A program made the position numbers and the translations under genes. A stretch of DNA of 32,000 bases. Source: Thermofilum adornatum. GTDB lineage: Archaea; Thermoproteota; Thermoprotei; Thermofilales; Thermofilaceae. A model generated the notes under the pieces. That model was not told the DNA's origin. It was given only the letters and a program-made list of their open reading frames with translations, and searched no databases. The stretch lies in the NCBI RefSeq assembly GCF_000446015.1, contig NC_022093.1, positions 810,001 to 842,000 on the forward strand. Direction: 5' to 3'. Shown here piece by piece: positions 7,908 to 31,496 of the stretch (positions are counted from its first letter, which is position 1; each line of letters begins with the position of its first letter).

Positions 7908-9248
7908 TTAGATTACCATGTTATGTTTTAGAAACTCAGTAATAATGTCTCGGAGGTCAGGCTTTGAAATCTCTCTCAGCTCGAACTTTATCCTTGTCAC
8001 CGGCTTGTTGACCCTGAGATATCTCGCTATGTTGCTTGGGGTTCCAAGTACAATAGATTCTGCTGGGACATTATTAATAGTGATTTCGAGGTCTTTGAGT
8101 TGCTGTGGGCTGTATCCAAGAGCTGGCAAAACCGGACCGATATGTGGATACTTCTCGTATGCCTCTTTAATTGTTCCAACGGCATATGGCCTCGGATCAA
8201 TTATCTCTGCGGCTCCGTATTTCCTTGCCGCGTAGTATCCGGCGGCCGTGCCTAGTCCGCCATGTGTAACAGTTGGCCCGTCCTCGATCACTAGAACCCT
8301 TTTACCCTTAATAAGTTCTGGAGTGCTTGCTGTGGCTTCAGAGTGTGCCTTAACTATGACGGCTTTGCTGTTAACCTTCCTGACTGCCTTCTCAACATTT
8401 TCAACGTTGCTCTGATCCACAACATTTACCTTGTTGATAACTATCACGTTAGCGAGCTTCACATTTACGAAGCCAGGATAAGACGACAAAACGTCTCTGG
8501 GTCTAGTTGGGTCAACTACTGTGATCCAGAGGTCTGGAACATAGAAAGGCCAGTCATTGTTCCCGCCGTCCCATATCACAACTTGGGATTCTTTCTCAGC
8601 TTCACGGATTATCGCCTCATAGTCAACACCTGCATAAACAATGTTGCCCTCTTCTATGTGTTGCTCATATTCTTCCCTTTCCTCGATAGTGCAATTATGC
8701 CTCTCCAGGTCTTCAAACGTGGCAAATCTCTGGACGACCATTCTCCTTAAGTCTCCATACGGCATCGGATGCCTAATGACTGCAAATCTAACACCCAGAC
8801 CCTTTAGAATGCTTGCAACTCTCCTGCTCACAGTGCTTTTACCCGCGCCAGTCCTCGAAGCGGTTACAGCGATCACAGGTTTGTTTGACTTTATCATTGT
8901 CTCAAAGACTCCTGGTAACACAAATTCCGCGCCAGCCGCTATCACCCTGCTGGCCTTGTCTACAACTTCTTCTGCGGTCAAGTCGCTGTAGGAAAGCATA
9001 GCTTTTTCTACGTTGTATTTCTTTATCAGTTCCTCAAGCATGGATTCTGGATAGATAGGTATACCCTCAGGATAGAGAGAACCAGCCAACTCAGGGGGAT
9101 ACCTCCTATTATCTATAAATGGGATCTGTGTAGCTGTAAATGCGACAACTTCGAACTTTGGGTTGTCACGGAAGAGAACATTAAAATTGTGAAAATCGCG
9201 TCCAGCCGCACCCATGATAATAACTCTCTCACGTGTAGTCTGCGTCAT
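7908..9248 (-). CDS. COG2403-family P-loop protein (cyclic 2,3-diphosphoglycerate synthetase-like / predicted GTPase)
   Basis: N-terminus IIMGAAGRDFHNFNVLFRDN and P-loop SRTGAGKSTVS, about 446 aa, as in cDPG-synthetase-like proteins. Confidence 0.55.
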   Translation of the reverse strand: MTQTTRERVIIMGAAGRDFHNFNVLFRDNPKFEVVAFTATQIPFIDNRRYPPELAGSLYPEGIPIYPESMLEELIKKYNVEKAMLSYSDLTAEEVVDKASRVIAAGAEFVLPGVFETMIKSNKPVIAVTASRTGAGKSTVSRRVASILKGLGVRFAVIRHPMPYGDLRRMVVQRFATFEDLERHNCTIEEREEYEQHIEEGNIVYAGVDYEAIIREAEKESQVVIWDGGNNDWPFYVPDLWITVVDPTRPRDVLSSYPGFVNVKLANVIVINKVNVVDQSNVENVEKAVRKVNSKAVIVKAHSEATASTPELIKGKRVLVIEDGPTVTHGGLGTAAGYYAARKYGAAEIIDPRPYAVGTIKEAYEKYPHIGPVLPALGYSPQQLKDLEITINNVPAESIVLGTPSNIARYLRVNKPVTRIKFELREISKPDLRDIITEFLKHNMVI

Positions 9249-9470
9249 TAGAGTCGATAAAAATTGTTTAAAAGCTGGATAAATTAATTTTCATAAATAA
9301 TGTTGAAGAACTCTACGATAACTTTGTCAAAACATAATTAGACAAACACTAAGAAAAAAGATGAACAATATTTAATTTTGAATTCACTACATTTCGTATT
9401 TTTACTTTGTTTTCTTCGGTCTATCTGCCAGCAGAGTCGAGTATTTATATAACGGAGCATAAACAACGAC

Positions 9471-9881
9471 GTGCCTTCAAGCCCTTGCAAGAAAGCTCTA
9501 GTCGACACGAGTATACTAATTTATTTTGTTGAACAAAATATAGACCTTTTAGAACTCTTCCTACAAGATGAAATCTGCCAACTAATAATCACTACACATG
9601 TCCTAGAAGAATTAAAATACATGGCTACCACCGCTAGGGGAGACAAGTCACGAAAAGCTAGAGTTGCCCTCGACGTGCTAAGGGAAAAAATAAGCCTCCA
9701 CCCAGCCTTGTTTACGCTTAGACACTACCCATTAAAACTTCCTACGGACGATCTATTGATAGAAGTCGCCGCCTCCGGGAAATACATTCTACTTACGGCA
9801 GACAAAATTTTAAAGAATAAGGCGGCTAAGAGAGGCATAGATGTTCTATTTTTACGAAAGTCCAGCAAGAAGCTAACATAG
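9471..9881 (+). CDS. PIN-domain protein (Fcf1/VapC-like nuclease fold), GTG start
   Basis: LVDTSILIYF (first acidic PIN residue), THVLEELK and LLTADKIL segments. A TTTATATA box at about 9444-9451 sits roughly 20-25 nt upstream, implying a leaderless mRNA. No partner antitoxin ORF. Confidence 0.5.
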   Translation: MPSSPCKKALVDTSILIYFVEQNIDLLELFLQDEICQLIITTHVLEELKYMATTARGDKSRKARVALDVLREKISLHPALFTLRHYPLKLPTDDLLIEVAASGKYILLTADKILKNKAAKRGIDVLFLRKSSKKLT

Positions 9882-9969
9882 ATAACATTAAAAATATAAA
9901 ACTCCCAGTTACAAGGGAAACCAAAAAGCTTAAATACTAATAAAAGAAGAAAATATTGGAAAGATTTAA

Positions 9970-10959
9970 ATGGATTTCGGGCGTGGAAAAATGTTTAAAG
10001 ATAACGTTAAAAGGGAGGATTTAAATACAGCAGGCGAAAAGGAAGAGGGAGAACTACGTTGTCCACAGTGCGGTAGCACAAGGCTGATATACGACTCGAC
10101 AAGAGGCGAAATTATCTGTGCAAATTGTGGCTACGTAATGAGTGAGAGAGAAGTTGACCAAGGCGCAGAGTGGCGGGCTTTTACTCCCGAGGAACGCGAA
10201 AAGAGAAGTAGAGTAGGTGCACCAATATCCAGGTATGGATTCGAAAGCCCGGTCACAGACATCGACTGGGTTGGTAAAGACGCTGCTGGTAGAGAGATAA
10301 GCCTGAGGAAACGCCTAGAAATGCTCCGACTGAGAAAATGGCAGGTAAGAGCCAGAGCACAAAACTCTATGGAGAGAAACCTGGCACAGGCAGTAATTGA
10401 GCTTGAAAGGTTGGGAGCCCAGCTGGGCCTGCCCAAAGCGGTTCTTGACAGGGCGCTTGAGATCTATAGAAGCGCTCTAAACAGCAATCTTGTCAGGGGC
10501 AGGTCTATTGAATCAGTTATGGCAGCCGCGGTATATGCAGCCTGCAGAGAAATGCGTCTACCTAGAACCCTAGACGAGATTGCTCTCTACACGAGGGCAG
10601 GCAGAAAAGACGTGGCAAGGTGCTATAGGCTGTTGTTGAGAGAAGCATCCATAAAGGTTCCCCTTCCAAATGCTGCCGACTTTGTCCCTAGGATCGGTTC
10701 CCTGCTACGCCTGTCTGGAGCTACCATAAAAAGAGCAATGGAGATAATTGACCAGGCGAGAAATGCTGGTCTAACTGCTGGAAAAGATCCAGCAGGGCTT
10801 GCTGCAGCAGCTATCTACATAGCAGCAATACAAAACGGGGAGATGAGGACACAGAAAGAGGTCGCCAGAGCAGCGAAGGTCACCGAGGTCACCGTTAGGA
10901 ACAGATACAAGGAGCTTGTCAAAAGGCTCGACATAAAGCTTCCCATAACGAAAAAGTAA
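9970..10959 (+). CDS. tfb: Transcription initiation factor B (TFB/TFIIB)
   Basis: Zn-ribbon CPQCGS...CANCG, B-finger/linker and two cyclin-like repeats ([17 protein letters not shown]; [12 protein letters not shown]). Confidence 0.95.
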
Positions 10960-24149: not shown

Positions 24150-24521
24150 TCATCCTCGTCCTATGATTATTTTATCGCTACCCCTCTCTATGCGGAATAT
24201 TATTTTTCCCCGAAAACATATGTTTTTACCTTCAAAGCCCTCAAGAACAATGCGAGCGTCAATACTTGTAGTGTTGCTTTGCGAAAAACAATACGGAAAA
24301 ATGGGCGTCTCAGAAACTATTTTCCCATTCACAAAGCAAACGTCCAGACTGTAGACGTTTGTGATTACTGTTCCTGGTGGAGAAAGCCAGATGTAACATA
24401 GGTCTCTGGCGAATTCATCATTGGAACTCGGAGACCAAGCTACATACGAGACCCAGAAAGAAAAAACAATCAATGCGGTTGCAATTAGAAGAATGCTGAA
24501 TAGTGCCTCTGAAATTTCCAT
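24150..24521 (-). CDS. Small prepilin-like membrane-anchored protein, 'EALF' N-terminal class, 4 Cys
   Basis: N-terminus MEISEALFSILLIATALIVFSF, then a beta-rich ectodomain with 4 Cys. The ATG abuts the upstream TAA, and GGTGGTGGG (24525-24533) acts as an SD. Confidence 0.6.
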   Translation of the reverse strand: MEISEALFSILLIATALIVFSFWVSYVAWSPSSNDEFARDLCYIWLSPPGTVITNVYSLDVCFVNGKIVSETPIFPYCFSQSNTTSIDARIVLEGFEGKNICFRGKIIFRIERGSDKIIIGRG

Positions 24522-25109
24522 TTACCCACCACCGGGTATCAGTATCTCTGCCCCCCACTTGTCTCTAAGGACACAAGGTGTCCCCAATGGAATCTCTATT
24601 GTGCCATCTCCATTGAGTATGTTTTCGCAGTTTGGCGTGAGATTTACGTCTAGGACAATTACATAGTCATACTGTGGTAGCTTGAATTTTTGTTGTGCCT
24701 CGACGAAATATATCCTCGTTACTCTCCCAGTTCCAATATCATTCCTGAAGCCTATGAGGCGATAGGTATAGTTTAGCTCGAAGGAGGCAGAGGTCCCGAT
24801 GTTGGTAAAGATAACGTAGCTACAGTATTTTTTTCCTTCGGTAAATCCGAAGGCCTCATAGTCATCGATAAGAGAATGGTTTATAGAGAGGGGAAAAGTA
24901 AAGTTTTCAACCTTTTTTACTGAATCTTGGAAATCCGTTTTTCTTGCACAGCTATACCTCGCAGTAACAAGAAACATCGCATAAACGTTTTCCCCTGCAT
25001 ACAGAACGCGTAGCTCTGCAGTACTCCTATAGCGTTGCATAACAGCTAGACTAAGCAGTACAACTGCTAACAGTGCTATTACGCCTTTTCTCTTCTTTAT
25101 GGGCCCCAC
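24522..25109 (-). CDS. Prepilin-like protein, '[KR]GVIA' class III signal-peptide-like N-terminus, 4 Cys
   Basis: GTG start; (M)GPIKKRKG|VIALLAVVLLSLAV fits the archaeal class III signal pattern (basic residues, Gly, hydrophobic helix). GGGGG lies 5 nt upstream. Confidence 0.6.
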   Translation of the reverse strand: MGPIKKRKGVIALLAVVLLSLAVMQRYRSTAELRVLYAGENVYAMFLVTARYSCARKTDFQDSVKKVENFTFPLSINHSLIDDYEAFGFTEGKKYCSYVIFTNIGTSASFELNYTYRLIGFRNDIGTGRVTRIYFVEAQQKFKLPQYDYVIVLDVNLTPNCENILNGDGTIEIPLGTPCVLRDKWGAEILIPGGG

Positions 25110-25375
25110 GAGAACCCCCTAACTACTGGAGTATCGTTGCACCAGAGAAGAATGGCTCCAGTTGGGGCATTGGGTAGAGGCGTGGATGCATTCACAGCTT
25201 CTAGGTAGGAGTCAACATCGTTGCAGGAGGCCCTGAACATTATCCAGGCCGCGATTGTTTCAAGGTTTCTTTCCTCTTTGAGGGTGGCAAAGGTGTTTGT
25301 CTTCAGGGACGGATAGGTATAGGCGAGAGTGTAGAGAACTATGAAGGCTACAAGGGTTGCTATCACTCCCCTCAT
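25097..25375 (-). CDS. Small prepilin-like protein, '[KR]GVIA' class, 2 Cys
   Basis: MRG|VIATLVAFIVLYTLAY; overlaps the next gene by 13 nt. Confidence 0.55.
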   Translation of the reverse strand: MRGVIATLVAFIVLYTLAYTYPSLKTNTFATLKEERNLETIAAWIMFRASCNDVDSYLEAVNASTPLPNAPTGAILLWCNDTPVVRGFSWGP

Positions 25376-25620
25376 GTTTTCTCCCAGGCGAGGATATTGT
25401 TGTTGTTTTTACATATGTAGAGAAGCTTGCCAGATACGTTTGCCTGCGTGACTGTGATTGTTTTGTCAGACATTACTACGATGCATGAGCCGTTAGGTAG
25501 CTGAGAGATTGTCGCTGATAGGGAGTCTTTTTCTATATGCTGAGACGCATAGATATATGACACTACCCCTGCAAGCAGGAGAAACTCTAGAAACGTGAAC
25601 AAAGCCTCGTCAACCGTCAT
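25372..25620 (-). CDS. Small prepilin-like protein, 'EALF' class, 2 Cys (paralogue of 29126..29413)
   Basis: MTVDEALFTFLEFLLLAGVV; SCIVV...LLYICKNN motif pair. ATGA overlaps occur at both ends, and GAGGTGG (25628-25634) sits upstream. Confidence 0.55.
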   Translation of the reverse strand: MTVDEALFTFLEFLLLAGVVSYIYASQHIEKDSLSATISQLPNGSCIVVMSDKTITVTQANVSGKLLYICKNNNNILAWEKT

Positions 25621-26126
25621 CCTCCTGCCACCTCAACTATTTTTACTTTAAGTATTAAAGGGGAATGCAGGTAGAACGTATAAGCTCCGACATTGAGAGT
25701 ATCAATGTAGCTCTTAAAAATCATGTTTTTCGTTGAAAAGTAGAGTCTTCTAAACGACCCATTGTTTACAGCGCTTACAACTACGAGTTCGCCAGAGGAC
25801 AGATTTAGCAACGGTGTAAACATAATTCTGCATGTATCTCCCAATCTTTTTATAGTGAAAGTGTCTGTCGCTACCTCAGCTCCATAACACTTTGAAACCT
25901 CGATCATTGTCTGGTTGTATCTTACTACTTCTTTTCCATTGATTCTTATGGATGAACTATTTACATGTATAGCAACATCGACCGGGAGCTCGATGTAGCT
26001 ACTTCCCTCGTAGATACCTGAAAGGAGGACATACAAGCTTTCAGTCGATATTTTCGCTTGTCCTTGGCTAATGGGCACATGGAAAACCTGGAATACTAGT
26101 AGGATGGATGCAATTGATAGAATCAA
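25617..26126 (-). CDS. N-terminally anchored small secreted/membrane protein, 2 Cys; start uncertain (possibly ATT at 26153)
   Basis: The track start is TTG 26126. The same frame is open and hydrophobic back to 26159. GAGGTGA (26160-26166) lies 6 nt before the in-frame ATT at 26151-26153. Confidence 0.5.
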   Translation of the reverse strand: MILSIASILLVFQVFHVPISQGQAKISTESLYVLLSGIYEGSSYIELPVDVAIHVNSSSIRINGKEVVRYNQTMIEVSKCYGAEVATDTFTIKRLGDTCRIMFTPLLNLSSGELVVVSAVNNGSFRRLYFSTKNMIFKSYIDTLNVGAYTFYLHSPLILKVKIVEVAGG

Positions 26127-26169
26127 AAAGATAGAAAAAGAAGCGATGCTAATGACTCTTCACCTCTGC

Positions 26170-29133
26170 CTATAGTTTCTCGACCCAGGGTACTACCACA
26201 ATGTCTTTTGTCTCCTCGGGGACAAATGTTAAATAAAGGGAGTATCTGTTTAGATCGTAAAAAGGTATAGAGGTGTCTTTTCCTGGCTCAACGAAGCCCC
26301 TCCAATAGATGTAAGTCTTATTTCTAATTTCTAGAAGCAGTTTCCCAGATATGTTACTAGTTAATGCATTGGGGATCAATATTGTTCTATTCCAGGAGAC
26401 TCTCCAGCTTCCATTTGCCATGTTAAATGCAACTACCGGTACTGCGTAGACAACCGGGATAGAAACACTGCCTTGGCTAGCTAGAAGAGTTCCGCCCCAT
26501 GTCGCATAGATAGACAAGTTGCCTACGTCCAGCTCGTCTGGGAAGCTCGAGTAGGGTATCTCTATCGAGGAGCTGTTTGCCGGGGCCCACCCGAGCGTTT
26601 GACCCTGGAAGACGGCAACAACGCTCAGTGCTTCCCAGAGGGGTTGAACCAAGTAGTGTATTGTTATGTGTGTCTCGTTGTAGGATATTTTCGTCAGGGT
26701 TAGGTTGACCGGTACGGATTCATAGATAAAGGTGCTCTCGTTGAGCTTTAGAACAGTTGTTCCAACGTTTTTTGGGGCTTGAATGGCTAATAACATATAC
26801 CTGGTGCCGTCTCCAAGCGTAACAATAGGCATGCTTGTGACATCACTCGGTAAAGATCTTGAGAGGGTTGCTCCAAAAGTTTCTTTCTGGAATAATGTCC
26901 AGTATGACCCAGTCTTTATAGTCCTGCCAAAAGTAGTGTTAACGTAGAGTTTACCAGAAACATTGTTAAACATCATGATTTTTCCATACTTGTCCAGTAG
27001 CCACAGGGTAGCGTTTGTCCACAGGTAATAGACGCCAGGCGGCAACGCTAAGAAATGTGTTGTGTTGAAAGGTAGGAGCGAGATTCCTGGGGGCCCTTTA
27101 AGAATGTATGTCCCCTTGTTGTCTCTGGATAGTTTCGAGTACTTGGCAACGAGAAGAATGGCTTTGCCAGAAGAAACAAAGCCCCTAACAGAGCTGGATG
27201 AAACAGAGGTAATTAAGCTCACCGGCTCGAAGTAAACATTGTGTGGGATGGTCCAAGAGTCTCTCGTAAAAGTTGCCTCGTAGACGTCCCAGCCCTCAAA
27301 GAAATAGTCAGTAAAGTTTTCTAGTTGTATAGTATATGAAACTCTGAGAGCATATACTTGGTCGTTGGGTTGTAGCTTCAAGTATAGGATCGTGTAGAGC
27401 TTCTCTCCAGAAAGGCTGGACGCGTTGAGTAGGGTTAGTGGTTTGTTTTGTCTAGCTGAGAGCCAGCTTGGGCTTACGACGTCAATAAGACGTATAGAGG
27501 AGATAAGTCTAGCATTGGAAAAGTTCAGCCTGTAGACAATTATGCTATTTGGGTTCTGTGTGCGGAGAACATAGTAGACCAGGCCAGGGTTTGCAATAAC
27601 AATGGGTGAAGACAGATTTTTCTGAGTATAGACTTCAAGTATATCGCTCGAGTTAAGCGTCCCAAGAATTTTGTAGAAGTTGTTTGTGCTCCCATTGTAT
27701 ACAAGGTTTTTGAAGCTGTTTGATTCTTTTGATAGGTAAAATGTTATTGAGGACTCTGGGAGGATCCTTAGACCCCAAGCATTCCTAGGTATGTCGAGAA
27801 CTAGGCCGGAAAGCGAGAGGTTGAAGAGTTGGGGCACATTTACTATGCTTCCGAGAATTATGGGCTGATTAGTGCTGTAGTAGTTGCCAAAATTGTAGTA
27901 CCAGTCAAAGTAGGCTTGGTAGCTCAATGCTGTCCAATTAGAGTATTTTCTCACCATTTCTGCCACTTTGAGGTCATAGCTGAAGGGTGAAACAGTAAAG
28001 AAGGCCCCCTCACGATAATTAACGTATTCGCTCCCTCCGCCGAAACGTATAAGTGTGTTACCAAACTGGTGAATATAGGGGCTGGTCGCAGGGTAAAGTA
28101 TAGAGCTCTGGGACATTTTGGGACGGTTATAGATGTTTGGACCAAGCTGTTCGTTGCTTGGTACAGAAGATATGCCACCAGGCAACAGAGAATAGTTTCC
28201 AAAGAGAATTCCACTTATTGGTACCGGGCAGTCTAGATTAGTGGACACTGCTAGATAGCTATAGAGAAACTGGAACACGGCCGTAGCCTGCAGGTTACTG
28301 TTGGTCTTTAGCTCCAGGATGTTTGACCTTATTATTGTTCCGTTGGAAAGTCTCCAATAAGAAAAGTACAGCGGAAAATCTATGTAGCTTGAAAGGGTTA
28401 CCTTGTGTGTTCCAATAGCGTTTGAAAATTCAGCGATATACACGAGATGTTCATTATTCAGTACTATATTCTTTAGCCGAAGAGAATAAAGCGAGTAGGG
28501 GCCGGCGGGGGCAAGAGACAAGTTCTGGTAAATGGTTCTACATGTCGATAGATCATACGGGCTTGAACACGCATACACATAGACTTTTCCCGGCTCGCCT
28601 TTAGTGCTTGTTTCGTCCAAGGCCGAAAAATTGTATATGCCTGAGAGAGGTCTAACGCTGAAAAGCGTGAATTTCTTGCCCTCCAGAACCGTTCCAATAA
28701 GACTTATGTCGCTATAATTGAAGTAGTACCTCGTATAGACAATGTTTGGTGCAATTAGTCTTAGCATTGAGCCTTCTCTTACTGACAGGGTAGCCGTAGC
28801 AGGTGGAGAGCCTCTAAGTCGAAGTTGTATAGTGTTTGAAGAGTTTTCAAGCACTACAGAGAAGTTTGCGGTAGCAAAAATTTTTCCGTTGACTTTTATT
28901 GCTCCGTCGAATACTACGCTACCATTAAAAACGACACTATCATATGTAGACCTGGTTGGAACGAGGAAATATACGTTTGGAGGCGGCCCACTCCACCATA
29001 ACGGATAGTTTTGATTTCCTGGCACAGAGAGGTCCACGGACAACGCCAAGGTCACGTTTTGTTCGGCGTAGGCAAGAGTCGATAAAAAAGCCGGCAACAA
29101 GAGAACTATGAGAATGGCAAGTCTGCTAGCCAT
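26170..29133 (-). CDS. Large secreted, sequon-rich (putatively heavily N-glycosylated) surface protein; candidate adhesin/tip or S-layer-like component
   Basis: Sec-type signal MASRLAILIVLLLPAFLSTLAYA|EQ, about 30 N-x-S/T sequons by hand count, and S/N/Y/L/V-rich beta-like composition. It has only 3 Cys and no hydrophobic C-terminal anchor. AGGTGG (29139-29144) lies 5 nt upstream of the ATG. Confidence 0.7.
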   Translation of the reverse strand: MASRLAILIVLLLPAFLSTLAYAEQNVTLALSVDLSVPGNQNYPLWWSGPPPNVYFLVPTRSTYDSVVFNGSVVFDGAIKVNGKIFATANFSVVLENSSNTIQLRLRGSPPATATLSVREGSMLRLIAPNIVYTRYYFNYSDISLIGTVLEGKKFTLFSVRPLSGIYNFSALDETSTKGEPGKVYVYACSSPYDLSTCRTIYQNLSLAPAGPYSLYSLRLKNIVLNNEHLVYIAEFSNAIGTHKVTLSSYIDFPLYFSYWRLSNGTIIRSNILELKTNSNLQATAVFQFLYSYLAVSTNLDCPVPISGILFGNYSLLPGGISSVPSNEQLGPNIYNRPKMSQSSILYPATSPYIHQFGNTLIRFGGGSEYVNYREGAFFTVSPFSYDLKVAEMVRKYSNWTALSYQAYFDWYYNFGNYYSTNQPIILGSIVNVPQLFNLSLSGLVLDIPRNAWGLRILPESSITFYLSKESNSFKNLVYNGSTNNFYKILGTLNSSDILEVYTQKNLSSPIVIANPGLVYYVLRTQNPNSIIVYRLNFSNARLISSIRLIDVVSPSWLSARQNKPLTLLNASSLSGEKLYTILYLKLQPNDQVYALRVSYTIQLENFTDYFFEGWDVYEATFTRDSWTIPHNVYFEPVSLITSVSSSSVRGFVSSGKAILLVAKYSKLSRDNKGTYILKGPPGISLLPFNTTHFLALPPGVYYLWTNATLWLLDKYGKIMMFNNVSGKLYVNTTFGRTIKTGSYWTLFQKETFGATLSRSLPSDVTSMPIVTLGDGTRYMLLAIQAPKNVGTTVLKLNESTFIYESVPVNLTLTKISYNETHITIHYLVQPLWEALSVVAVFQGQTLGWAPANSSSIEIPYSSFPDELDVGNLSIYATWGGTLLASQGSVSIPVVYAVPVVAFNMANGSWRVSWNRTILIPNALTSNISGKLLLEIRNKTYIYWRGFVEPGKDTSIPFYDLNRYSLYLTFVPEETKDIVVVPWVEKL

Positions 29134-29413
29134 CTAATCCACCTGTAAGAATAGAAGAGACGTTGACCTGCAAGTTGCCTCGACAAATATAGAGCATCTC
29201 TTTCACTGTACCATTCGTACCTATGGCTCTTACTGATACTATCGGTGGGCAAGTTTTTCCAACCTGGGACACTTCCACCTTAGCCACGGAGAAGCCTTGC
29301 ACCGTTACGATACAACTACAGATGGTTCTAGAGGAGGCTACATATGCATCCAAAATGGTTGGAGATGCTACCAGCATTACCAGTAGTCCTATAGCCAGAA
29401 AGATTCGAGACAT
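29126..29413 (-). CDS. First gene of the operon: small N-terminally anchored protein, 4 Cys (paralogue of 25372..25620)
   Basis: MSRIFLAIGLLVMLVAS anchor; CSCIVTV...MLYICRGN motif pair. A TATA-like TTTTATTTAG (29436-29445, minus sense) about 28 nt upstream implies a leaderless mRNA. Overlaps the 987-aa gene by 8 nt. Confidence 0.55.
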   Translation of the reverse strand: MSRIFLAIGLLVMLVASPTILDAYVASSRTICSCIVTVQGFSVAKVEVSQVGKTCPPIVSVRAIGTNGTVKEMLYICRGNLQVNVSSILTGGLDG

Positions 29414-29539
29414 ATCATCCCTTTTTAGACACTCTAAATAAAACGCTCAAGAGGGAAAATCTTCCCAGAACCACCTTATAAGCATAATGAGAAATGTGAA
29501 TGGTGAGCAAAAACGTCGGAAGAAGTTGGAAGAAGCCTT
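29414..29539. promoter_or_regulatory. Divergent promoter region of the two surface-protein transcription units
   Basis: Minus-sense TTTTATTTAG (29436-29445) and plus-sense CTTATAAGCATAA (29475-29487), with inverted repeat GGGAA-N4-TTCCC (29453-29466) between them. Confidence 0.35.
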
Positions 29540-29911
29540 ATGCTGATAATCACACTGAGCGTTGTAGCACTAATTGGTTTCTTCATGTACAGTGTGGCTT
29601 CTTCAGCCACAAACAGACCCGTACTTGTCCAGGCCGGAGACGCACTTATATCTGGAAATCCACCCACCTACACTGTAACAATATACCTCCAGAACATCGG
29701 GACCTCCACTGTTGACTTGACTGGAATAAATCTAAATGTTCCAGACATTGGAGCCAACACATCACTGACCTGTAATCCACCAACATTAAAAAGCGGCGAA
29801 ATAACGAAGTGCACAGCATCACTCAGCACTACGTCCACTATAACCACGGCGAAAACAGCAATCATAGAGACAAAGTATGGCGCATTAAAGATCACACTCC
29901 TAAGGGCTTAA
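29540..29911 (+). CDS. Pilin/FlaF-FlaG-like small protein: N-terminal TM helix plus Ig-like beta domain, 2 Cys
   Basis: MLIITLSVVALIGFFMYSV, then YTVTIYLQNIGTSTVDLTGINLNV (a CARDB/archaeal pilin-like beta-sandwish pattern; resemblance only). No in-frame upstream start is available. Confidence 0.5.
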   Translation: MLIITLSVVALIGFFMYSVASSATNRPVLVQAGDALISGNPPTYTVTIYLQNIGTSTVDLTGINLNVPDIGANTSLTCNPPTLKSGEITKCTASLSTTSTITTAKTAIIETKYGALKITLLRA

Positions 29912-29934
29912 GAACAAAACAAGGGTAGATTTTT

Positions 29935-31041
29935 TTGCTTGACGACCTGGAACTTTTACTACTCCTTGTTTTTTCTGAAGCACAGCCCTCCTTTATATTC
30001 TCGTGGCTATCAAACAATGGCTACACCTATAAAGCTACGAGCAGACTGATAGAGTTGGCAAAGCAGGACGAGATGAATGGCTCGAGAGAAGCCCTCAAAA
30101 CACTTCTCTACGAGAAAATCCAGCAACTCCGGCTGAACCTAGAAATTTTCAGCAAGAAATCTGAGACGCTAACGGAGATTTTCACACTTACCCTTTTAAC
30201 GGCACCCATAATGCTCTACTCTTTGGGGATATTTCAGCCGTGGCTCCTCCCACAAATTACAATTGTACTCATGGCTCTTAACATGTTGATCCTCGTGCTT
30301 TATAGTAATTTATACCCAAGAGAACTCCGCGTCATGAAGTTGCCGAGAAAAATGTTACCAATTATACTCTACCCAGCACTCGTAACGCCATTAACAAAAA
30401 TTCTTTTTCTAGACATACCGCTCGAAAAACTCTTGCTAATCTTTCTGGCAACTTCTTTCCCTGCAAGCATACTAATATATCGGGAAACGAGACAAATAAC
30501 AAAGGAACTCCAAGAAAACCTAGAAATCCTCGTAAAGGCCTCATCAAGCCCCTTCCACGTCTTCTCTCATTTAGACCTCAGTCTACTCAAGAAGGACACG
30601 AAGACTGAGCTTTCAAAAACTGTCAGAATAGCTGTATACCTTCTTGGACTCTGGGGCTCGGAAAGGACGGGTCTAGCAGAACTCAAAAACATCTACGAAG
30701 AAATACTCAAAACACTAAAAGCAATACGTGCCCGTGGAACAATTAGCGCACTAAGCAACCTGGTCTCTCTTTTCCTCCTCGGCTTCAGCTCAAGCCTAAT
30801 AACACAGCTACTCTCAACGCTTGCCTCAAGAGACATGCTGGCATCACTAGGAATAATAATAGACCCTGCCCAACTATACACCTGGATAGAGCTCTACCTC
30901 ATATATGCCTCTATCGTATATACACTTGGCCTAGCCCTACTATCCCTAGGCTCACCATCCTTCTACCCCCTCTGGTTGCCGCTAAGCATACTCACGACAC
31001 TTGCAGGTCTCATCTCCGGGAAAAAGCTTCTCGGGTGGTAA
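29935..31041 (+). CDS. Polytopic membrane protein (7-8 TM) with two helical cytoplasmic segments; possibly a TadC/FlaJ (T2SS-F)-like platform protein
   Basis: TTG start. The pattern [helical soluble segment plus TM cluster] occurs twice (about res 30-180 and 183-365). No motif-level confirmation is possible by eye. Confidence 0.4.
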   Translation: MLDDLELLLLLVFSEAQPSFIFSWLSNNGYTYKATSRLIELAKQDEMNGSREALKTLLYEKIQQLRLNLEIFSKKSETLTEIFTLTLLTAPIMLYSLGIFQPWLLPQITIVLMALNMLILVLYSNLYPRELRVMKLPRKMLPIILYPALVTPLTKILFLDIPLEKLLLIFLATSFPASILIYRETRQITKELQENLEILVKASSSPFHVFSHLDLSLLKKDTKTELSKTVRIAVYLLGLWGSERTGLAELKNIYEEILKTLKAIRARGTISALSNLVSLFLLGFSSSLITQLLSTLASRDMLASLGIIIDPAQLYTWIELYLIYASIVYTLGLALLSLGSPSFYPLWLPLSILTTLAGLISGKKLLGW

Positions 31042-31044
31042 CCA

Positions 31045-31185
31045 GTGGATAAAACACTATACGGCTTCATAGTTATCCTAGCTCTACTTGTCCTACTATT
31101 ACTATTCATTGAGACAACTGTCACCCGTGAAGCACCAACCATCTACATTAATTCTACCTGTCACCTCGTAATCGCTAAAGGATAG
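31045..31185 (+). CDS. Unannotated 46-aa micro-ORF with prepilin-like N-terminus (below the ORF-track cutoff)
   Basis: GTG at 31045, 3 nt after the upstream TAA and 6 nt after GGGTGG (31033-31038). Translation is VDKTLYG|FIVILALLVLLLLFIETTVTREAPTIYINSTCHLVIAKG, with TAG at 31183-31185. Confidence 0.45.
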   Translation: MDKTLYGFIVILALLVLLLLFIETTVTREAPTIYINSTCHLVIAKG

Positions 31186-31268: not shown

Positions 31269-31496
31269 ATGGTAAAGGGCTACATCTTAGTCACAACCAA
31301 GCCCGGAAAAGAATACGATGTTGCCGAGCAAGTCAAGAAGTTTCCATTCGTGAACGACGTTGACGTCACATATGGCCTATGGGACATAGTTATACGTGTC
31401 CAGCCACCTACACTCTCCGAGCTAGACAAAGTCATATCAATGATAAGGAGTCTAAAAGAAGTAGAGCAGACAGTTACCCTTGTCTCACACGAGTAG
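31269..31496 (+). CDS. Stand-alone Lrp/AsnC-type ligand-binding (RAM) domain protein
   Basis: 75 aa; MVKGYILVTTKPGKEYDVAEQVKKFPFVNDVDVTYGLWDIVIRV is a typical RAM-domain beta-alpha-beta-beta-alpha-beta pattern without an HTH. An AATATATAT box lies about 30 nt upstream. Confidence 0.6.
   Translation: MVKGYILVTTKPGKEYDVAEQVKKFPFVNDVDVTYGLWDIVIRVQPPTLSELDKVISMIRSLKEVEQTVTLVSHE

Follow-up and report, generated by a model that had tools for sequence, protein, structure and literature searches.

By definition, an archaeal type IV filament system comprises four parts, namely an ATPase, a platform protein, a pilin and a peptidase. We analyzed a ten-gene block at positions 24,150 to 31,185 of a 32,000-nucleotide (nt) stretch of Thermofilum adornatum DNA (NC_022093.1, 810,001 to 842,000; hereafter the window), which encodes pilin-like proteins, a candidate platform protein and a large secreted protein. 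It resembles a catalogued class, subsystem 4G (PMC4858521; Sivabalasarma & Albers 2026 preprint). Loci of that class encode two ATPases, one a diverged secretion ATPase and the other MinD/FleN-like, together with a diverged TadC-like protein and a pilin of the PilA family; they also have numerous small minor pilins that evolve fast and contain cysteines, and large, Ig-rich proteins with a signal peptide, described as 'adhesin or minor pilin'. Subsystem 4G has been described mainly for Pyrobaculum/Thermoproteus and Vulcanisaeta/Caldivirga, and the 2026 census does not mention the Thermofilales. The '4E-like' split pilin loci of Vulcanisaeta, Caldivirga and Thermofilum (two species named) have no ATPase and no TadC, and the 2016 census put forward the idea that pilin loci elsewhere are served by an orphan Thermofilum ATPase (PMC4858521).

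Like the '4E-like' loci, the locus in the window has its pilin and candidate adhesin genes away from any ATPase. Those loci carry the arCOG05475 signature pilin and lack TadC, whereas the window locus keeps its own platform candidate, g368 (29935-31041, plus strand; all coordinates are positions of the window unless another locus is named, and all open reading frames (ORFs) of the block were present there). The ATPase and the MinD-like gene of 4G are both missing from the window locus and its orthologs. We read the block as a chromosomal, vertically inherited type IV filament (type IV pilus, or T4P, -like) module of the Thermofilaceae whose dedicated ATPase genes were lost or relocated, and assign this reading a probability of about 0.7. 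The locus would then be an ATPase-less derived form, specific to this lineage, of a complex type IV filament system similar to subsystem 4G, because g368, the pilin g123b (29540-29911, plus) and the small protein g195 (24522-25109, minus) link by profile to ATPase-linked loci. As such it extends a catalogued class and does not overturn current understanding. What appears to be new, as judged from the sequences, is a platform candidate retained with pilins and without an ATPase, and a conserved C-terminal strand predicted in the large protein, g987 (26170-29133, minus).

The locus was syntenic, with the same gene order, in all five W-type lineages of the Thermofilaceae. These were the window clade (L010, L012), the L013/L001 lineage (~60% identical to the window), Thermofilum pendens Hrk5 (L018; CP000505 609709-630809, with all locus genes annotated as hypothetical), L014, and L008, an Infirmifilum metagenome-assembled genome (MAG). 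Only g95 (29126-29413, minus), the first gene of the minus-strand operon, was confined to the Thermofilum lineages. The locus always lay between DRG GTPase/CDC48 and AsnC-like/Topo VI genes, so that the synteny held in five lineages spanning two genera. Ortholog identity across the five ranged from 24 to 72%. Hot-spring metagenomes yielded near-identical contigs, and the closest named proteins belonged to Thermofilum sp. MAGs. Within the window clade, the ratio of non-synonymous to synonymous substitution rates (dN/dS) was 0.04-0.42 for every gene (0.19 for g123b; 0.04 for g46, a small plus-strand gene). Relative to L013, non-synonymous divergence of the locus genes was 2-5 times that of the housekeeping neighbours, with synonymous sites already saturated. 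The low dN/dS, the raised divergence and the fixed synteny together indicate that the ten genes are real, functional, fast-evolving and vertically inherited. These values also bear on whether the block could be a decaying, non-functional remnant of a pilus locus that has lost its ATPase. The lack of an ATPase, a MinD-like gene or a peptidase in the locus, a frameshifted pilin leader and the loss of the operon in some strains would fit such a remnant, but its ORFs are intact in five lineages at the identities given above, across saturated synonymous sites, and its cysteines, sequons and terminal motifs are conserved. We rejected the remnant on the evidence of purifying selection and regard it as highly improbable. 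A separate observation was made with L012, which is 95% identical to the window: dS in the pilus genes was 0.04-0.25 as against 0.027 in the adjacent DRG GTPase gene (2-9 times), which hints at allele exchange or older alleles at the locus.

In five loci, namely those of Infirmifilum uzonense (L005), the MAGs L006 and L007, and L020 and L021, the g368 homolog had both a T2SSE ATPase and a MinD-like ATPase no more than 3 kb away. T2SSE scores in these ATPase-linked loci were 56.5, 56.8 and 29.6 bits (Pfam gathering score 24.9), and the MinD-like genes matched AAA_31 at 29.6 bits in L021 and had a deviant Walker A in L020. The five loci share the published hallmarks of 4G, a comparison made on the published description. 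The whole module is collinear between the two kinds of locus. Like the window locus, L020 is divergent, one unit comprising the MinD-like gene, a 98-amino-acid (aa) protein, the ATPase, a pilin, the platform homolog and a 102-aa protein, and the opposite unit encoding proteins of 833, 180, 69, 117, 197 and 129 aa whose N-terminal motifs, MLDEA..., KSRG/Q... and MMELE..., match those in the window (here and below, a slash in an N-terminus marks the -1/+1 boundary). I. uzonense has the corresponding series in a single direction (903, 193, 97, 103, 207 and 109 aa), and L007 has up to four tandem PilA-like pilins. A sequence-only reading of this DNA had set the block apart from ATPase-centred archaeal T4P loci and proposed the system as a candidate undescribed one. 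The first claim fails on the five loci, which have the same gene series, and the second on the fact that loci of such style have already been catalogued computationally for the Thermoproteales. Its proposal of relatedness to type IV pili, with a minor-pilin-like series beside a large secreted protein, was supported, and the Pfam, NCBIfam, homolog and PDB searches gave no match to a characterised operon or named family. None of the ten proteins had a significant match in Pfam or NCBIfam.

We searched leave-out profiles, built from W-type orthologs only, against a local database of 1122 ORFs. The g368 profile retrieved the ATPase-linked homologs with E values of 3e-10 to 2.5e-16, and the g123b profile retrieved the pilins of the ATPase-linked loci at 1e-6 to 2e-4. 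With the g195 profile, the collinear 207-aa gene of I. uzonense was recovered at 7e-4, and at 1.3e-6 when L019 was added; L019 is a second ATPase-less variant in another chromosomal context. In an all-against-all hhalign comparison with 11 candidates, the collinear gene was the best match for four of seven families. The g368 tree separated six ATPase-less from five ATPase-linked loci with 90% bootstrap support and recovered the Thermofilum/Infirmifilum split with 100% support. Because of the 90% bipartition, the ATPase and MinD genes read as lost or relocated once. The tree also bears on the possibility that the block is an integrated virus or a mobile-element cassette for virion or conjugation surface proteins. 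Such an origin would be in line with fast-evolving orphan proteins, strain-level gene replacement and a GC content slightly below that of the flanks; the AT-richness noted earlier by eye was right in direction and small in size (GC 0.439 vs 0.465 in the rest of the window, 2.6 points). Against it, the g368 phylogeny follows the genus split, the block keeps the same housekeeping position across two genera, and no integrase, flanking tRNA or repeats occur at the block (the sole tRNA of the window is at 936-1023). The fixed synteny led us to reject a mobile element, and we consider it close to negligible.

No T2SSE ATPase or A24 peptidase was found in the window by Pfam searches of all ORFs of at least 110 aa or by tblastn, in agreement with what had been noted from the sequence. 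Likewise, no T2SSE ATPase lay within ~10 kb of the locus in L018, L013, L008, L014 or L019, these loci had no peptidase gene close by either, and there was no MinD-like gene in the window or at the orthologous loci. The ATPase and the prepilin peptidase for the locus are probably encoded elsewhere. The T. pendens entries in Table S3 of PMC4858521 give three clade-4 secretion ATPases elsewhere in the genome and no archaellum, and the arCOG table of the same source shows one arCOG02298 (A24 peptidase) gene in each genome column shown, T. pendens included. In the part of the 2016 census supplements that was covered (PMC4858521), the T. pendens genes of the locus had no GI-prefix match. Since the platform candidate has no ATPase of its own, one secretion ATPase would have to serve several platforms. 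The Sulfolobus bindosome (BasABC/BasEF) offers a comparison in that machinery and substrates are likewise at separate loci and components are shared in trans. There, however, it is the ATPase and platform (BasEF) that are encoded together, at a distance from the substrates, whereas in the window the platform candidate is with the pilins and the ATPase would be distant. The locus represents a stable, selected arrangement in which platform candidate, pilins and large glycoprotein are kept together while the ATPase is probably encoded elsewhere, and keeping the platform with the pilins in this way implies that ATPases are shared between platforms.

The product of g368, which the sequence-only reading had listed as a 7-8 TM protein and left uninterpreted, is a polytopic membrane protein with ~7 transmembrane segments (TMs) and two cytoplasmic helical domains. 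Its size and helical topology suit a platform protein, and its AlphaFold2 (AF2) model was all-helical with a mean confidence score (pLDDT) of 80. An exhaustive phmmer search found 22 representatives of the family among 1.84 billion, all from Thermofilaceae or unclassified Thermoprotei; the search thus reached only Thermofilaceae-like Thermoprotei, unlike the genera for which 4G has mainly been described. The best Pfam match of the family consensus was T2SSF, at E 0.002 and 18.4 bits against a cutoff of 25.2; it fell in the region to which hhalign also assigned bacterial TadB/TadC, and a single family member matched T2SSF at E 0.054. UniRef's automated label on the I. uzonense homolog is GspF domain. 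Sequence searches of the PDB with g368 and with its family profile returned nothing relevant. We consider g368 a candidate for a highly diverged TadC/FlaJ-type platform protein. Directly 3' of it lies g46 (31045-31185, plus), which encodes a 46-aa single-helix membrane micro-protein (MDKxLY[GA]...) with orthologs in L013, L018, L008, L014 and L019.

The candidate major subunit is g123b, a PilA-like pilin that has a hydrophobic helix at its N-terminus and two conserved cysteines in a beta-rich domain. It aligned with pilins of the related loci that bear canonical R..GG/IPPxVTV leaders, and its Pfam matches (Pilin_N, Arch_flagellin, CARDB) were sub-threshold. In the window clade, g123b is missing its class III leader because a 10-nt direct repeat (GGAAGAAGTT and GGAAGAAGCC; 29500-29542) shifts the upstream ATG at 29500 out of the g123b frame. 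The protein then starts MLIITL, almost exactly at the expected N-terminus of the mature pilin. The repeat was present in T. pendens (L018 ~9572-9612) and in all window-clade strains, and the extra copy was absent from L013/L001 (L001 2200-2260), L008 and L014, in which MSEEVGRS[LI]M... is in frame. Since the state of the repeat does not follow the phylogeny, recurrent slippage is suggested. The repeat could be an on/off switch for the leader, or the pilin could be 'pre-processed' and independent of the peptidase.

The minus-strand operon encodes six small proteins in addition to g987. The gene junctions were exactly as read from the sequence, with an overlap of 8 nt, a gap of 43 nt, overlaps of 4, 4 and 13 nt, and finally 0. 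Each small protein has a single N-terminal hydrophobic segment and, as had been noted, an even number of cysteines: four in g95, two in g169, two in g82, two in g92, four in g195 and four in g123a. We took [KR]G followed by a hydrophobic run as the canonical class III motif, and a FlaFind-style class III pattern matched g195 and g92. Four prepilin-like N-termini had been proposed from the sequence; those of g92 and g195 are canonical class III, and those of g82 and g123a turned out to be acidic and non-canonical, with an acidic residue at +6 and A/T/S/N at -1. The signature component of the series is g195, a minor-pilin-like protein with N-terminus KKRKG/VIALL and C-terminal L.D[KE][WFY]G. Nine loci had a member of its family, among them the ATPase-linked L005, L020 and L021, and both [KR]R[KR]G/[QVA] and L.D[KE][WFY]G were kept in all of them. 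The minor-pilin-like g92 (25097-25375, minus) begins MRG/VIATL and has both its cysteines conserved; the motif was matched in the three Thermofilum lineages, and the glycine at -1 is replaced by threonine in L008 and L014. Its family reached L019 and had a weak link to the collinear 103-aa gene of I. uzonense (E 0.02). The mini-protein g82 (25372-25620, minus; M..DEA/LFTFLE, two conserved cysteines) kept its motif in five lineages and shared it with the collinear genes of I. uzonense (MIDEA/IIVLAE) and L020 (MLDEA/IFAL); its best hhalign match was the collinear 97-aa gene of I. uzonense (E 0.008). The last small protein, g123a (24150-24521, minus; MEISEA/LFSIL), had orthologs in the five W-type lineages and L019, and the collinear 129-aa gene of L020 is the one that begins MMELE...; no significant sequence link was found to the 109-aa gene of I. 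uzonense. The protein g95 has a Sec-type or anchor N-terminus, with orthologs in L013 (30%) and T. pendens (23%, E 1e-5) and none in the Infirmifilum-type loci. Overall, g92, g123a and g95 had no significant link to collinear counterparts in the ATPase-linked loci.

The first of the five small-protein genes that follow g987 is g169 (25617-26126, minus), which encodes a membrane-anchored protein. Orthologs were present in all five W-type lineages, and among the 11 I. uzonense candidates its best hhalign match was the collinear 193-aa gene (E 0.003). We noted that its TTG start has no Shine-Dalgarno (SD) motif and that the hydrophobic segment extends upstream in frame (RVISIASFSIF; 26126-26165). 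There is an in-frame ATT at 26153 with a GGTG 7 nt ahead of it, and the orthologs have longer N-termini (MDREAL..., MGRKAL...), which suggests that g169 may use a non-canonical start.

The large protein g987 was confirmed as Sec-secreted, sequon-rich and anchorless: its only hydrophobic segment is that of a Sec-type signal peptide, and it has 30 N-X-S/T sequons where its composition predicts 12.4 (z = 5.8). Eighteen of these sequons were common with L013 and nine were kept across three lineages. A full-length alignment was obtained with the 1003-aa protein of T. pendens (30% identity, E 1e-126). In a word-indexed search of 5.8 billion clusters, only two relatives were found, whether a single sequence or a six-sequence profile was used, and there was no match in Pfam, NCBIfam or the PDB (the last searched with an alignment). 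A genome scan with the g987 profile found nothing, and the AF2 model made from a three-sequence alignment had a pLDDT of 33 and was unusable for a fold search. The extreme C-terminus, ..VVVPW[VIE]E[KR]L, was kept in all five lineages, with a similar tail in L019, and the last 12 residues ranked 5th of 976 windows for invariance. We also observed that the Infirmifilum-type loci (L008 5909-9474; L014 5924-9485) encode a large protein of ~720 aa that aligns only with residues 164-289 and 642-987 of g987, with an extra lineage-specific secreted protein of ~475 aa ahead of it, and that L019 (11331-14959) has a pair of 500 and 709 aa.

We regard g987 as a candidate pilus-associated adhesin. A large, secreted, beta-rich protein that is predicted to be glycosylated and stands beside small membrane-anchored proteins could instead be an S-layer protein (SLP), or form an S-layer-anchoring complex with them, unrelated to type IV filaments, and S-layer-like proteins have been noted inside Thermoproteales T4P loci (PMC4858521). 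Yet g987 has no C-terminal TM anchor or hydrophobic segment, and in both T. pendens (A1RY64) and I. uzonense (A0A0F7FI64) the PySLP-type candidate is another protein, which is anchored (10.64898/2026.08.21.746120). Moreover, the operon is absent (L011) or truncated (L010) in close strains, and three of the components have homologs in ATPase-linked pilus loci. We rejected an S-layer identity on the missing anchor, the other SLP candidates and the absence of the operon from some strains, and judge it very unlikely.

A different possibility is that the locus builds not a long pilus but a short pseudopilus or bindosome-like structure: the small pilin-like proteins would assemble close to the membrane and export g987 or hold it at the surface, as in a T2SS or the Sulfolobus Bas system. 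Features in line with this are that g987 is anchorless, heavily sequon-rich and co-transcribed with five minor-pilin-like genes, that there is a single PilA-like gene, leaderless in the window clade, and that the bindosome base machinery is known to serve non-pilin class III proteins encoded elsewhere (10.64898/2026.04.22.720090). The signal peptide of g987 is, however, Sec-type and not class III, which argues that g987 is not itself a pilin-like substrate. The tandem PilA-like pilins of L007 are typical of filament builders, and Pfam scans in and around the locus detected neither an ABC transporter nor a solute-binding domain. We consider a short structure of this kind rather unlikely.

If the locus does form a filament, as we favour, the small, presumably disulfide-containing proteins and the g123b pilin would insert in the membrane through their N-terminal helices, and the class III-motif proteins g195 and g92 would be trimmed by the genome's single PibD/FlaK-type peptidase. 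The platform g368 would recruit a T2SSE ATPase encoded elsewhere and polymerise g123b. The small proteins may then assemble into a priming or tip complex with g987 as its cargo adhesin, perhaps docked through the C-terminal strand. This last step is drawn by analogy with the bacterial fimU-pilVWXY1E and PilHIJK-PilC systems, in which, as in the window, small pilin-like proteins are co-transcribed with a ~1000-aa non-pilin secreted protein apart from the ATPase. In bacterial PilY1/PilC, a C-terminal strand of 6-10 residues inserts into a minor pilin and licenses assembly, and the conserved strand at the extreme C-terminus is a feature shared with g987 (PMC13533445). The bacterial complex is marked by a C-terminal beta-propeller in PilY1 and by GspK/PilX-type minor pilins. 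On the other hand, Pfam and NCBIfam searches showed no sequence similarity between the PilY1 operon and the window locus, the N-termini in the window depart from the bacterial G-1/E+5 rule, and in the window the platform gene travels with the pilins. The resemblance to the PilY1/minor-pilin complex is thus to be taken as an analogy only. Carried to its full extent, the analogy would make the locus the first archaeal equivalent of the minor-pilin/tip-adhesin initiation complex of bacteria: filament priming would fall to the five small proteins, which would also hold g987 by beta-strand addition of its ..VVVPWxEKL tail, on a dedicated platform that has been ATPase-less since before the Thermofilum/Infirmifilum split, with a leaderless, 'pre-processed' and peptidase-independent pilin. 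We offer this combined version tentatively and think it improbable as a whole. The locus is nevertheless a concrete candidate for an archaeal tip/priming complex, and one of its carriers, T. pendens Hrk5, is culturable.

Several points weigh against a filament module with its ATPase elsewhere. The filament is predicted here from the genes, and the pairing of the locus with a cognate ATPase of the related type in one genome is one that we infer. The similarity of g368 to known platforms is limited: all its Pfam T2SSF matches were sub-threshold, hhalign of the family against five annotated bacterial TadB/TadC proteins gave E 0.71, no internal repeat was detectable beyond a reversed control, and Foldseek of the model against the PDB gave no match. 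The canonical class III motif is found in only two of the six small proteins of the operon, g82 and g123a having the acidic N-termini described above, and the pilin is without a leader in the window clade and T. pendens. Nor did g987 resemble the large proteins encoded by the ATPase-linked loci when compared, by hhalign and BLAST, with those of I. uzonense. Finally, the closely related strain L011 has the entire g95-g123a operon replaced, so that the operon is dispensable.

The replacement was seen in two strains whose g368 is 93-94% identical to that of the window. The operon is cut inside g92 in L010 (18-5206) and is replaced in L011 (75-6707). The replacement is a pair of genes. One encodes a membrane protein, which is 295 aa long in L011 and is represented in L010 by a 202-aa ORF at the locus start; the product of the other is ~1530 aa long, with TMs at its N-terminus and an extended helical C-terminal part. 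L011 has a 387-aa gene as well. The replacement genes had no Pfam match. Homologs of the pair stand at the end of the ATPase-linked loci of I. uzonense (L005 19877-21218) and L006 (1-4018), and the exchange may have arisen by recombination between paralogous pilus loci. Such strain-level replacement of an adhesin operon suggests that the surface structure is under pressure to diversify, exerted for instance by viruses with pili as their receptors.

The two transcription units diverge from an intergenic region of 126 bp (29414-29539) with TATA-like boxes for both. As the sequence-only reading had it, the ATG of g95 has a TATA box candidate, the TATA-like TTATTTAG, 28 nt upstream; for the plus-strand unit, CTTATAAG, also TATA-like, lies ~30 nt upstream of the ATG at 29500. 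We infer that these are the promoters of the two divergent units. The GGTGG-type SD motifs claimed for the internal genes were found at the right spacing for g987, g82 and g123a, and also for g46 (GGTGG at -11); that of g92 was weak, and g169 and g195 had none.

The genes flanking the block proved to be housekeeping genes, as had been noted, and include those for the thermosome, TFB, TruD, TmcA, CDC48, the DRG GTPase and Topo VI-A. Next to the locus, at 31269-31496, is a gene for a 75-aa protein that consists only of an Lrp/AsnC ligand-binding (RAM) domain without a helix-turn-helix. Each of the five W-type lineages has it beside the locus, at 69-85% identity, and L019 has none; it probably reflects conserved housekeeping synteny and is not a dedicated regulator. 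Upstream of the I. uzonense pilus locus (L005 91-6309), we found genes for DUF87/HerA-like and KaiC/RadA-like ATPases, a C2H2 zinc-finger protein, a STAND-like NTPase and ParB_N. The ParB, zinc-finger and NTPase genes were found in L007 too, and the region may be a conserved accessory or mobile region beside the pilus genes. Elsewhere in the window, a 446-aa protein (7908-9248) with only a weak cobW/GTPase-domain match and a PIN-domain protein (9471-9881) are encoded in the region of lowest GC content, 0.37 at 9001-10000.

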